Source of the DNA: a virus
Length of the DNA: 64,000 bases
Reading direction: 5' to 3' (one strand)
Virus record (IMG/VR): IMGVR_UViG_3300002026_000020
Shown: in pieces, positions 37,915 to 49,385 of the stretch
Position numbering within the stretch: the first letter of the stretch is position 1
Layout of the letters: each line of letters starts with the position of its first letter
Notes under the pieces: generated by a model
Database searches by the model: none
The model's input: only the letters and a program-made list of their open reading frames with translations
Told to the model about the DNA's origin: nothing
Position numbers and translations under genes: made by a program

Positions 37915-37984
37915 TTCTTTCAATGGGGATGAAACGCCCCAGCCCATCACAAGCCTCTTTACAATGCTCAACCCGTGATGTCGT

Positions 37985-38825: not shown

Positions 38826-39536
38826 ATGTCACAAAGAGCAAAACGAAGCATAATATGGAAAATAACAAAAGAAAATCTTATAAATGTTGTAAAGACATCT
38901 AAATCTTTTAGTGAAATACTAAAACACTTCGGTATGATAAACAAAGGTGGAAACTGTATAACTCTCAAAAAAAGATGCGGGGAGGAAAATATAGATATAT
39001 CACATATACCAATTGGTAATTCTTCTAATAGGGGGAGAAAGTTTATAAAAGACAAGACGCCATTAGAAAAAATATTAGTAGTCGATAGTAACTTTTCAAG
39101 AGTTCATCTAAAAAAGAGAATTATTGAAGAAAATATTATAGATTATAAATGTAAAAAATGTGGCAATACTGGAGAATGGCTTGGTGAGAAAATATCCTTA
39201 CATTTAGAACACATAAATGGAGTTTCTAATGATAATAGATTAGAAAATATATGTTTCTTATGCCCTAACTGTCACAGTCAAACTGAAACTTATGCTGGAA
39301 AAAACTTGCCGAGAGTAAAATATAATTGTTCTGAATGTGGAAAAGTAATAACGAAGTGCTGTAAGAGTGGGAAATGTCTCTCATGTTTGGGAAAGAATAA
39401 AAGGGTTTTCGATGCTACGAAAGAAACTTTAGAATCTCTAATAGAAACAAAACCTATGACTAAAATTGGCGAGATGTTTGGTGTTTCTGACAATGCTATA
39501 CGAAAAAGATGCAAAAAATTAGGAATATCTTTATAA
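38826..39536 (+). CDS. HNH homing endonuclease
   Basis: LHLEHINGVSNDNRLENICFLCPNCHSQT. Confidence 0.9.
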   Translation: MSQRAKRSIIWKITKENLINVVKTSKSFSEILKHFGMINKGGNCITLKKRCGEENIDISHIPIGNSSNRGRKFIKDKTPLEKILVVDSNFSRVHLKKRIIEENIIDYKCKKCGNTGEWLGEKISLHLEHINGVSNDNRLENICFLCPNCHSQTETYAGKNLPRVKYNCSECGKVITKCCKSGKCLSCLGKNKRVFDATKETLESLIETKPMTKIGEMFGVSDNAIRKRCKKLGISL

Positions 39537-39541
39537 AACAA

Positions 39542-39966
39542 TTTTTGTTGATTAGACCGAAACGTAGGCTTAGAAGCAGCCATGGAGAAATCCACATAGG
39601 GAAACTTATGCATCTAAGGAGTCCGCACACTATATGGGTTATGAGCGAGCAACCGACTGTGAGTGTTTCGAAATGTTCGCAAGAGCATATTCGAGTGAAC
39701 CGATAAAAAGGAAGACCAAGAAACGCATTCAGCCAGCGGATTGAACAACTCGTCACATTGTCGCAAGTAAGCGAACCCAACTATGAGGAAAAAGATGCTA
39801 ACAAAGGCTCGTGGCGTCGAAAGAACCAAAGCATGTTAGAACAAATCCTCTCTTGAAACCGGGAGCAAACTTTACAAAGCGTTATTACCGGCTCAAGTGG
39901 GTGTATGGTAAAGAGTAGTCAAACCAGCGGTTTAGCGTAACAGCACATCGGATAAGTCAACAAAAA
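39542..39966 (+). ncRNA. Large ncRNA containing a mimic of 23S rRNA helices 42-44 (L11/L10 binding site)
   Basis: GTAGGCTTAGAAGCAGCCAT...CTAAGGAG...AGCGTAACAGCACA; terminal helix tttttgttgatt/agtcaacaaaaa. Confidence 0.75.
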
Positions 39967-39975
39967 CAATTTCAT

Positions 39976-40053
39976 ACAGGTGCGGACTGTGGCGTAAGTC
40001 GAGAACCCTCCAAAAGTTCTGCTATTCAGGTTCGATTCCTGACACCTGTGCCA
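39976..40053 (+). tRNA. tRNA-Trp(CCA)
   Basis: GAAC(C)-CTCCAAA-(A)GTTC, G73, CCA. Confidence 0.75.
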
Positions 40054-40181
40054 AAGTAAACGTATAACTGGCGTTCTTGAGGGTTCGATTCCCTTCGCAG
40101 CCTTAGCGGGTTGTCCTCGGTGGAGGGCTGCATGCACCCAATGATGCAAGGTTCGATTCCGTGATACATTTACCCTTTTAT

Positions 40182-40306
40182 GAGAGAGTGGAGGAAATTA
40201 GTATACTCACCGCTATAAACGGCGGCGTCTCTTTGGGTGTACAACCACTGACGGAGTGATATGCTCCGTAGCAGACATGTAGGTTCGAACCCTACCTCTC
40301 TCACCA
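40182..40306 (+). ncRNA. Leu-like tRNA derivative with very large variable region
   Basis: GAGAGAG/CTCTCTC-A-CCA, T arm, abnormal anticodon loop. Confidence 0.55.
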
Positions 40307-40361
40307 TTTTTATTAGAGAAAAGTGCGATACTCGTATAAATACTAATAGGAGTATCGCACA

Positions 40362-40946
40362 ATGACAATATATCTTCTATACAAGATAATCAACAAAGTA
40401 AATGGAAAAATTTATATTGGCGCTCATCAAACTGAAAATGTTGACGATGGGTATATGGGATCCGTGAATCTCATACAAAAGGCAATAAAAAAATATGGAT
40501 TGGAAAACTTTGAGAAGCATATCATAATGTTATTTGATAATCAAAAAGATATGTACGATATGGAATCAATAATAGTAAATGAGGATTTCGTAAAGAGAGA
40601 TGATGTGTATAATATAAAAGAAGGTGGTATTGGAGGGTGGAAGCATATCCAAATGGATCCAGAGGCAAGTGAATCTCGTAAAAAAAGAGCAGGAGATTTA
40701 TTCAGAAGGTTACATGTAGAAGGTAAAATAAAGTATGACACTTTTACTGGTAGAAACCATTCGGAGGAATCTAAAATAAAAATAGGAATGGCAAATGCTA
40801 TAAAACAGAGTGGGGATAAAAATTCTAACTATGGTAAATGCTGGATATACAACGATACAGAGAAGAAGAGTATAAGTGTTCCAAAGAATGAAGTTGATGT
40901 GTGGATTACAAAAGGCTGGAAAGTTGGAAGAAAAATAAAGTGGTAA
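40362..40946 (+). CDS. GIY-YIG homing endonuclease
   Basis: LYKIINKVNGKIYIGAH..YMGS; paralog of 30939. Confidence 0.9.
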   Translation: MTIYLLYKIINKVNGKIYIGAHQTENVDDGYMGSVNLIQKAIKKYGLENFEKHIIMLFDNQKDMYDMESIIVNEDFVKRDDVYNIKEGGIGGWKHIQMDPEASESRKKRAGDLFRRLHVEGKIKYDTFTGRNHSEESKIKIGMANAIKQSGDKNSNYGKCWIYNDTEKKSISVPKNEVDVWITKGWKVGRKIKW

Positions 40947-43545: not shown

Positions 43546-43548
43546 TTT

Positions 43549-43867
43549 TTGTATATCAGACAATCGCAAGAGGACTCCAAACTCTTGAGGAAAGTCGGGG
43601 CACCATAAAAAAGTATACCAGCTAACGGCTGGCACATCTTTCGGTAGGTGTGAGGAAAGGGCAGTAAGAAATATACCGCCGATGACTCCGCAAGGAGAAC
43701 AGGTAAGGGTTGAAAACACGACGTAAGAAACCGTGCTTTGTATAGTAATATACATCGAATGTAACCCCTATACGGTGCAAGGCAGTAATTGCCGCTTGAG
43801 GGTGTCAGTGATGACACTCCTAGACAAATGATTGTCCAACGACAGAACCCCGCTTACCGATATACAA
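43549..43867 (+). ncRNA. rnpB: RNase P RNA
   Basis: CR-I GAGGAAAGTC, AGACAAATGATTGTC, CR-V ACAGAACCCCGCTTA; P1 gtatatc/gatatac. Confidence 0.92.
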
Positions 43868-43931
43868 TACCGATTTTTATGATATAATGTAATCAAACCA
43901 TTATAAATACATTATGGAGGGTTTGATTACA

Positions 43932-45504: not shown

Positions 45505-45577
45505 GGTTCCATAGCTCAGTTGGCAGAGCAAGGCACTCTAAACGCCCAGGTCGGGGGTCCGACTCCCCCTGGAACCT
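45505..45577 (+). tRNA. Amber suppressor-type tRNA (CTA)
   Basis: GGTTCCA/TGGAACC, loop CTCTAAA, U73; own promoter at 45461-45487. Confidence 0.7.
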
Positions 45578-45621
45578 CAATAAGTCTCCTGACATGTATA
45601 AATAATGTCAGGAGATTTTTT

Positions 45622-49018: not shown

Positions 49019-49385
49019 GGGGATGAACCGATTTCGACTGGATTATGAAAATAATACCGGCATGTGGTAGAGCATTAGGCTACCTAAAATAAATGCAAAC
49101 GCATAACTGACGATTCAGTTACATATGCAATGGCTGCGTAAGCCTTGCCTAACGCCCTAAACTCCGTTATAGGGAAACGTTAGCAGCAACGGATGCTGTC
49201 TGGAAATGTCAATGGGAGTTATCCAGAAGTAAGTCAACACCTGTTCGTGGCACGACGAAACAACCTAGCCCGTCTTCGGGGCGATACAAAATGGAGAATG
49301 GTGTCAATGACATTCATTGACTAAACATGTAGAAGGGTTATAGAAGTTATTCAGGACGCGGGTTTGACTCCCGCCATCTCCACCA
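49019..49385 (+). ncRNA. ssrA: tmRNA; tag (A)DDSVTYAMAA at 49109-49141
   Basis: 5' GGGGATG..TTTCGAC; 3' GACGCGGGTTTGACTCCCGCCATCTCCACCA; G3:U pair; tag ending AA-stop. Confidence 0.92.

Follow-up and report, generated by a model that had tools for sequence, protein, structure and literature searches.

The 64,000-nucleotide (nt) stretch of viral DNA deposited as IMG/VR record IMGVR_UViG_3300002026_000020 (hereafter the window) belongs to an uncultured T4-like giant phage, and an array of transfer RNA (tRNA) genes in it contains a 425-nt element at positions 39542-39966 on the plus strand, which is a non-coding RNA gene. The two ends of the element together make a self-closed replica of nt 1051-1108 of bacterial 23S ribosomal RNA (rRNA), that is, the top of helix H42, helix H43, the 1082-1086 junction and helix H44, the domain called the GTPase-associated centre (GAC), to which uL11 and thiostrepton bind and which the translational GTPases contact. 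An earlier reading, made from the letters alone (the sequence-only reading), had described the element as a free-standing non-coding phage mimic of H43/H44 and the top of H42, and our analysis supports this description. The parts of the element are the following, where pairing refers to the minimum free energy (MFE) fold.

39542-39553, plus strand: 5' strand of the terminal helix, UUUUUGUUGAUU, which pairs with 39954-39966 in the MFE fold
39557-39561, plus strand: 5' strand of the top of H42 (23S 1052-1056), of which CCGA pairs with UCGG at 39948-39951
39562-39583, plus strand: H43 mimic (1057-1078), with the equivalent of A1067 at 39572 and that of U1060 at 39565
39584-39610, plus strand: insert-1, 27 nt with two hairpins, between U1078 and C1079; both hairpins are in the MFE fold
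39611-39622, plus strand: 3' strand of lower H43 and junction (1079-1090), CAU CUAAG GAGU, with the equivalent of A1088 at 39620
39623-39930, plus strand: insert-2, 308 nt, closed by CCGC/GCGG, in the 5' strand of H44 (1090/1091)
39931-39934, plus strand: UUUA linker, the family-specific UUU-R
39935-39946, plus strand: H44 mimic (1091-1102), GC-GUAACA-GC-AC, with the equivalent of A1095 at 39939; the hairpin is in the MFE fold
39947-39951, plus strand: 3' strand of the top of H42 (1103-1107), which pairs with 39557-39560 in the MFE fold
39954-39966, plus strand: 3' strand of the terminal helix, AAGUCAACAAAAA, with G39956 bulged in the MFE fold

With both inserts removed, the core agrees with E. 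coli 23S 1051-1108 (reference NC_000913 rrlH) at 43 of 58 positions, and the mismatches fall mainly at stem positions that covary across the family described below. The H43 mimic is the closest part: 39567-39581 is identical to E. coli 1062-1076, the 17-mer GGCUUAGAAGCAGCCAU matches E. coli 1062-1078 at 17 of 17 positions, and the H43 15-mer is found a single time in the window when two mismatches are allowed, where 0.07 occurrences are expected. Its 9-nt loop UUAGAAGCA at 39570-39578 sits atop a 3-bp GGC/GCC stem. In lower H43, C1079-G1059 and U1081-A1057 are paired and A1080.C1058 is mismatched, a position at which the orthologue introduced below has C-G. The Y-UAA-R junction is present as CUAAG GA at 39614-39620, with 1082:1086 as C-G followed by G1087 and A1088, and after CCGC...GCGG come UUUA and then GCGUAACAGC-A-C, including the A at 1101. 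The H44 hairpin with G1091-C1100, C1092-G1099 and a GUAAYA-type loop is found at 39935-39944. Moreover, the nucleotides on which the GAC tertiary fold and uL11 binding depend are in place, namely U39565, A39620, G39576 and C39577 for U1060, A1088, G1071 and C1072, and the MFE fold of the complete RNA (425 nt) recovers every GAC helix. The strings on which the sequence-only reading had built its comparison with the bacterial H42-H44 segment, CCGAAACGTAGGCTTAGAAGCAGCCAT at 39557-39583, TCTAAGGAGT at 39613-39622 and AGCGTAACAGCACATCGG at 39934-39951, are all where it placed them, as is the insert of about 300 nt between CCGC (39623-39626) and GCGG (39927-39930); insert-1 went unmentioned there. 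The terminal helix, given there as 12 bp, is nearly so, consisting of ten contiguous pairs (39542-39551 with 39957-39966) and two more beyond a 1-nt bulge. It is found in the orthologue too, and a small internal loop separates it from CCGA at 39557-39560. Next to this, A39561 stands opposite A39947, which corresponds to 1056.1103, a position that is A.A in 27 and G.A in 30 of 63 family copies.

That the window holds no other rRNA, as had been claimed, is borne out: Rfam 15 at gathering thresholds gave no large- or small-subunit rRNA match in the whole 64 kb. With E-values up to 10, the region 39400-40100 left the element unmatched, the models of rRNA, group I and II introns, the L10 leader and the GOLLD/ROOL type being silent. 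Small open reading frames (ORFs) of 32-36 aa within the element are unsupported and are not kept in the orthologue. Contigs from four DNA sequencing runs yielded no natural variants: those that span the element match it exactly, and the rest do not cover it.

The element belongs to a family. We scanned IMG/VR by the 5' 17-mer and by a 3' 19-mer; the resulting sets are pattern-ascertained and all counts are lower bounds. The 17-mer retrieved at least 117 loci and the 19-mer at least 118, at least 84 of which are additional, and in all the family is present at no fewer than 200 IMG/VR loci and in 14 bacterial assemblies; cultured phages carry it too, without annotation. Among the 17-mer loci listed, none carries other 23S signatures, and among those listed from either scan none is a real 23S gene. 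Most loci share a common architecture, which runs from a closing stem through GA-NGUN, H43, CNN-YUAAR-GAGU, a variable insert and YUUU-GGCGUAAYAGCACA to the other strand of the closing stem. The insert follows GAGU at 1090/1091 in every member, is 20-309 nt long and has a covarying closing stem; in the UUU-R linker behind it U is found in 52-55 of 62 members at each position, followed by G in 49 and A in 8.

Covariation gives the structure firm support. Both ends were located in 74 copies, and the 63 unique ones among them are the basis of the per-pair counts. The closing helix flanking 1056/1103 is paired in 76-95% of copies with all four Watson-Crick types, and the window element has this covarying helix at 39557-39560/39948-39951 together with its outer helix. 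Pair 1058:1080 is UA in 20, GC in 15, AU in 7 and CG in 4 copies; pair 1057:1081 is AU in 38 and CG in 7; pair 1082:1086 is UA in 26 and CG in 15; the first pair of the insert closing stem is GC in 27, AU in 14 and UA in 6. For a test of significance, a 33-member MAFFT alignment was scored under our own structure against 500 column shuffles. Paired cells made up 94.1% versus 68.8% in the shuffles, cells changed on both sides numbered 191 versus 58.7, and the covariation score was 0.66 versus 0.17 for shuffled columns and 0.11-0.20 for slid partners, none of the 500 shuffles scoring as high. The covariation among phage homologues which the sequence-only reading had named as a check is thus strong, and its companion check against Rfam and large-subunit rRNA returned no match for the element or for rRNA elsewhere in the window.

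A covariance model, R1, was built from phage copies only. It finds the genuine GAC in E. coli 23S (51.9 bits, E 1.5e-12) and also in the 23S of Acidithiobacillus and Flintibacter, and this serves as a formal test of the term "mimic". Among cultured phages, R1 detects full-length unannotated copies in Pseudomonas phage pf16 (94.6 bits, between tRNA-Asn and tRNA-Pro) and Cronobacter phage GAP32 (87.1 bits). Candidates seen by BLAST only are in Serratia phage BF, the Erwinia pEa_SNUABM phages, Pectobacterium CBB and Aeromonas 4_4572, as well as Xanthomonas XbC2, XacN1 and XaC1; with the whole element as query, blastn against 50,697 phage records gave no match at 1e-5, and it took a shorter query, restricted to the core, to obtain matches. 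A search by pattern through 185,579 species genomes yielded 53 genuine 23S genes, and a further 14 sequences, in bacterial assemblies, are copies of the mimic. These assemblies include two prophage-bearing isolates, Acidithiobacillus sp. M4-SHS-6 and Flintibacter muris DSM 110149, and in both the mimic junction differs from that of the host's own GAC, so the copies are not fresh captures of host rRNA. Excluded from the count were Paenibacillus phage Pd_22F and many "phage" records of 2-7 kb, all of which hold insert-less true 23S. In Pd_22F (MZ092003.1, about 83.9 kb), the insert-less GAC with genuine lower-H42 flanks lies near the record end (L291:1492-1555), and this 23S stretch may stem from host rDNA, by transduction or capture, or from faulty assembly. 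The full-text literature that we searched, with subscription-only papers outside its scope, contained no description of a phage-encoded GAC replica. We conclude that the family is a new kind of phage RNA, of which the window copy is an unusually expanded member.

The window copy is a derived variant, expanded at 1078/1079 by two hairpins and at 1090/1091 by 308 nt that evolve fast, which shows that the scaffold tolerates expansion at two sites. Of the two hairpins in insert-1, hairpin A (39584-39593) is GGA-GAAA-UCC, a GNRA-capped stem of 3-4 bp, and hairpin B (39595-39610) has 6 bp and a GAAA loop. This insert marks a minority subclass made up of the window copy, L286/L283, L279, L280, L288, L115 and L045, among which the stems show compensatory changes. 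Insert-2 is among the longest in the family and is similar to no other family locus.

Metagenome contig L286 (with L283) carries the orthologue and is syntenic with the window, having the same tRNA order and the same abiF motif. Identity between the two is 91% in the 5' core, 92% in the junction and 84% in the 3' core; it is 74% in insert-1 and 54% (z 2.9) in insert-2, against 74-86% in the intergenic spacers of the array and 82% in the transfer-messenger RNA (tmRNA) gene. It follows that insert-2 was exchanged for other sequence or evolved far more quickly than the nearby non-coding DNA, while the GAC core was kept. The sole block common to both insert-2 sequences is ACCGAUAAAAAGG at 39699-39711, at the same offset. 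No close relatives were found by neighbouring protein; insert-1-specific patterns gave chance matches only in IMG/VR and none in the metagenomes, and a shorter pattern retrieved L283/L286, L279 and L280.

Several candidate identities of insert-2 were rejected. It is not a strongly folded domain, as the z-score of its MFE is -1.07, which is not unusual. It is not further rRNA, since a blastn-short comparison with E. coli 23S showed nothing beyond GGAAGACCAAG (E 0.2) and 8-10-mers here and there, which are chance matches. Nor does it belong to the sarcin-ricin-loop (SRL) class described next, for there is no such motif in the element, nhmmer with the subclass profile was empty in the insert, and the match in the window is at chance level. 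As a side observation, a second junction-like motif UAAAGAGU lies in insert-2 at 39909-39916, 14 nt 5' of the UUU linker, where the orthologue has GAUGAGUA; it may be the remnant of a duplication. The register on this second motif that R1 suggests was discarded, as it has no 1057-1059 pairing, has G.A at 1082:1086 and leaves the next 14 nt without a closing stem; the first junction has all three, namely the 1057-1059 pairing, the 1082:1086 pair and the closing stem.

In other members the inserts are of recognisable kinds. The SRL subclass (L036, L099, L102, L198, L219, L242, L261) carries the sarcin-ricin-loop hairpin AGUACGAGAGGA and variants of it with covarying flanking stems, about 250-275 nt after the H43 motif, in an insert of about 300-330 nt (305-313 nt where measured). 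Holding both GAC and SRL, it unites in one RNA the two rRNA halves that make up the GTPase docking site. G stands at 1067 in several of its copies. The window copy shares with this subclass the core, the insert site and a similar length (about 380-440 nt), whereas its insert has no SRL motif and no sequence in common with the SRL-bearing inserts. Two further motifs recur in inserts: a C-box/kink-turn-like GGUGCGAAAUG...(G)AUGAUGUGC(C) in L049, L054, L091, L116, L215, L007, L250, L192 and others, and CACCCCGUAAC-GGUAAGG in L005, L018, L188, L192, L205, L212 and L267. The recurrence of such motifs indicates that the inserts form subfamilies with their own constraints.

What the family keeps of the GAC bears on what it may bind. 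To control for ascertainment, the conservation of each half was read from the set retrieved through the other half. The nucleotides which build the H43 fold are kept, namely U1065/A1073, U1066, G1071 and C1072. At L260:4902-5063, the H43 loop AUAGAAGCU has U1065 changed to A with A1073 changed to U, a compensatory change at the loop-closing 1065.1073 pair. In the H44 loop, U1094 is found in 55, A1095 in 56 and A1098 in 53 of 62 members, position 1096 is a purine in 56 of 62 (A 43, G 13) and 1097 is any base; G1093, present in 62 of 62, was required by the detection script and is hence uninformative. U1060, which no search pattern fixed, is invariant, and position 1088 is A in nearly all junctions among the 17-mer loci listed. 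The C-terminal domain of uL11 contacts 1058-1060, 1062-1065, 1075-1083 and 1088 (PMC1802607), and the U1060-A1088 pair is hydrogen-bonded and read by uL11 (PMC2175356). The strands of lower H42 that form the uL10 platform (AGACAGC... / ...GUCGAG) are kept in real 23S, and in the family a freely covarying A/U-rich helix takes their place, which speaks against the uL10-(bL12)n binding proposed by the sequence-only reading. Judged from these patterns, the family appears to keep a compact uL11-type domain without the stalk platform and without the strict A1067 contact used by thiopeptides and EF-G.

Compared with known systems, the nearest object is the rRNA domain itself, and the nearest principle is the mimicry by ribosomal protein (r-protein) leaders together with phage RNA decoys. 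With the bacterial 23S GAC the phage RNA shares the helices, the H43 loop, the GUAAYA loop of H44, the covariation of 1082:1086 (U-A or C-G) and U1060, A1088, G1071 and C1072. Unlike it, the mimic is free-standing and self-closed among phage tRNAs with no surrounding rRNA; the family always has the extra helix at 1090/1091 and the UUU linker, has A1101 in place of U, lacks the lower H42/uL10 site and is relaxed at the tip 1067-1070, and the window copy adds the 1078/1079 insert. The r-protein leaders, such as the rplJ L10 leader (RF00557), are likewise off-ribosome RNAs that imitate a protein site of the H42-H44 region. However, they are cis-acting, lie upstream of an r-protein gene, copy protein-contact features only and bind L10(L12)n, whereas the element holds the whole 58-nt domain, misses the L10 part, has no r-protein gene and matches nothing in Rfam. 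Pseudo-ToxI of phage PhiTE (PMC3475682) is also a non-coding RNA of a phage which resembles a host RNA and thereby weakens a host activity, and phage tRNAs serving as spares against tRNA-cleaving defences (PMC13096335) share the tRNA-array context; unlike the element, pseudo-ToxI imitates an antitoxin RNA and the spare tRNAs replace tRNAs. In the literature searched we found no description of a decoy that copies an rRNA domain.

Regarding function, the element would be transcribed with the phage tRNA array as a stable non-coding RNA, probably excised by tRNA-processing enzymes, and its two ends would fold into the self-closed replica of the uL11-binding GAC. Off the ribosome, such an RNA would present a second GAC copy. 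This could draw in the uL11 of the host, or else a toxin, enzyme or factor whose target is the uL11-GAC surface, so that the RNA would serve as a decoy or sponge during infection. This is our preferred reading, and we give it about an even chance, i.e. that the off-ribosome replica binds host uL11 and/or a molecule recognising the uL11-GAC surface. The more general idea that phages make free-standing replicas of factor-docking rRNA (GAC, or GAC with SRL), either as decoys for ribosome-directed host effectors, among them toxins, immune enzymes and stress factors like RelA, or for sequestering uL11 or GTPases, we put forward as a tentative one, with the odds somewhat against it.

Several points weigh against the decoy or sponge proposal. 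Insert-1 emerges in the middle of the 1075-1083 strand that, from the published contact list, contacts uL11; binding of uL11 may be hindered in this subclass, and the position of the insert limits what a common function of the family can be. The H43 tip is relaxed in the 3'-retrieved set, where 1067 is A in 36 of 49 copies, G in 10 and C in 3 and 1068-1070 also vary, which speaks against any role that depends on the tip, for instance binding of thiopeptides or contact with EF-G domain V. In addition, R1 aligns the window copy only in part, at 39565-39583 (22.2 bits, E 1.7e-4 over the window) and 39833-39955 (14.6 bits). It aligns both the window copy and L286 piecewise because of their two large inserts, having no room for insert-1 or for a 308-nt insert; the insert-1 carriers L279 and L280 score 60 and 43 bits, and L286 is aligned only piecewise. 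Since the alignment is piecewise, the membership of the window copy was assigned feature by feature. Furthermore, a search of four complete carrier phage genomes found no L11 or L10 gene, so that the partner must be a host molecule. As there is also no r-protein gene near the element, the effect on r-protein autoregulation that the sequence-only reading had suggested finds no footing. Finally, uL11 on the ribosome may exchange too slowly for a sponge to matter.

Among the alternatives, a decoy aimed at a toxin comes first. The free GAC copy could be a substrate that soaks up a host's or competitor's toxin which modifies or cuts H43/H44, a possibility that we regard as unlikely. A toxin acting at this site exists: Tre23 modifies H44 of 23S rRNA by ADP-ribosylation around 1095-1098, blocking EF-G (PMC8661411), just where the loop is well kept in the family at A1095 and A1098. 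Tre23, however, is an effector of the type VI secretion system and not a defence gene. RNA-directed ADP-ribosyltransferases include CmdT in phage defence, and others target tRNA, tmRNA and RNase P RNA (10.1101/2024.02.24.581848), the same RNAs that the phage island carries, along with a stand-alone abiF antitoxin-type motif. A decoy of this kind would resemble what has been proposed for phage tRNAs in countering anticodon nucleases, but nothing at the family loci ties the RNA to a GAC-directed toxin system, and we know of no anti-phage defence system that has the GAC as its target.

The replica might otherwise mimic the factor site, binding a translational GTPase (EF-G, IF2, EF-Tu, RF3, BipA/LepA) or RelA away from the ribosome and so retuning host translation or the stringent response, to which we assign a low probability. 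The joining of GAC and SRL in one subclass speaks for it, and EF-G is said to bind oligonucleotides of both domains (reportedly Munishkin and Wool, 1997). Nevertheless, the window copy lacks the SRL motif of that subclass, the factor contact A1067 is variable in the family, and the uL10/bL12 stalk platform which recruits factors is missing.

Quite improbable, in our judgement, is the view that the GAC fold is a compact nuclease-resistant chassis and the variable insert the working part (aptamer, antisense or protein-binding module). The grouping of the 20-309-nt inserts in subfamilies with their own conserved motifs would agree with it, and the low identity of the window insert to that of the orthologue, set against neutral-looking spacers, suggests replacement or diversification. 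On the other hand, members with inserts of 20-60 nt exist, the family-wide conservation is in the core and not in the insert, a mere chassis hardly explains why an exact rRNA domain is retained, and the fold stability of insert-2 is ordinary. That the element is functionless, being a captured rRNA fragment, an rRNA exon remnant at an intron or homing-endonuclease site, or a leader of the r-protein type, deserves next to no credence: although homing-endonuclease genes flank it and r-protein operons do have rRNA-mimicking leaders, covariation is strong, the independent copies number in the hundreds, Rfam up to E 10 finds no group I/II intron and no leader family, the orthologue keeps the RNA without the HNH gene, no conserved ORF lies downstream, and the mimic is unlike the GAC of its own host.

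Should the reading as a decoy replica be true, it would mean an unrecognised layer of phage-host conflict by rRNA mimicry, in which the fast-changing inserts are lineage-specific adaptor modules. A widespread phage RNA that copies the GAC would point to a new way to manipulate or protect host translation, with uL11 sequestration, titration of translation factors and absorption of GAC-directed toxins as candidate effects; uL11 is required for RelA activation. To our knowledge, viral copying of rRNA domains as independent genes has no precedent. The cultured carriers pf16 (Pseudomonas putida) and GAP32 (Cronobacter) have tractable hosts, so that the question can be put to a direct test. Annotation would gain as well, with a name for several hundred gaps between genes in the tRNA arrays of phages.

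The genomic surroundings are those of an RNA island. The phage is myovirus-like, with baseplate hub and wedge genes and a ribonucleotide reductase, and comes from microbial-mat metagenomes. In the window, Rfam gives 38 tRNA matches, RNase P RNA, tmRNA and the abiF motif. The 25-50-kb island of tRNAs, RNase P RNA and tmRNA is broken up by HNH and GIY-YIG genes, at least seven such ORFs interrupting the 25-45-kb RNA island. The nearest neighbours of the element are the following.

38826-39536, plus strand: ORF similar to HNH-type homing endonucleases, with weak HNH and zinc-ribbon Pfam matches, upstream of the element
39976-40053, plus strand: tRNA-Trp(CCA), called by ARAGORN, 9 nt downstream of the element
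40362-40946: SegE-type GIY-YIG gene, downstream of tRNA-Trp

The HNH-like ORF is missing at the syntenic site of L286, where the RNA is retained, so that the endonuclease is not part of the unit. Nothing like a sigma-70 promoter lies immediately upstream of the element, and nothing like a terminator lies between it and tRNA-Trp. Co-transcription with the tRNA array, as put forward in the sequence-only reading, is plausible, given the shared strand, the 9 nt to tRNA-Trp and the lack of a terminator-like site between them, and cleavage by RNase P at the 5' end of tRNA-Trp would free the 3' end of the element. The same setting recurs in the family: a tRNA lies within 500 nt at 75 of the 117 family loci listed, with many tRNAs directly abutting the element, and 710 of the 712 tRNAs at the loci listed are on its strand. 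No neighbouring protein family is recurrent, the best, homing endonucleases, being found at 8 of the 118 loci listed; as no neighbouring protein gene is conserved, the RNA is not a cis-regulator.

Several further features of the island deserve mention. Pieces of the SegE-type gene (window 40208-40703) recur nearly unchanged in freshwater metagenomes of other studies, with one differing letter per contig of about 233 nt, while the flanks differ there, which fits a mobile homing endonuclease. The abiF RNA motif at 37945-37981 on the plus strand (RF03085, 38.7 bits versus a gathering threshold of 37) lies between tRNA genes; it is stand-alone, with no adjoining abiF gene, is syntenic in L286 (L286:4901-4937), and may be an antitoxin-RNA decoy in the RNA island. 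Two further T-arm boxes GGTTCGATTCC lie at 40082-40092 and 40150-40160 on the plus strand, 3' of tRNA-Trp; no tRNA is called there by ARAGORN or by Rfam, and the boxes could mark tRNA-like genes that have decayed or are of an unconventional kind. A class A RNase P RNA at 43548-43872 on the plus strand (187 bits) begins 3 nt past tRNA-Leu(GAG); the syntenic 445-nt gap of L286 has no RNase P match, which makes the phage RNase P gene variable cargo. The tmRNA gene at 49019-49385 on the plus strand encodes the tag DDSVTYAMAA, and its 82% identical counterpart at L286:11555-11914 encodes DDSVEYAMAA. Lastly, a tRNA with the CUA anticodon (Pyl according to ARAGORN), an amber suppressor, lies at 45505-45578 on the plus strand and is kept at L286:9248-9322, and it may hint at TAG recoding in part of the genome.

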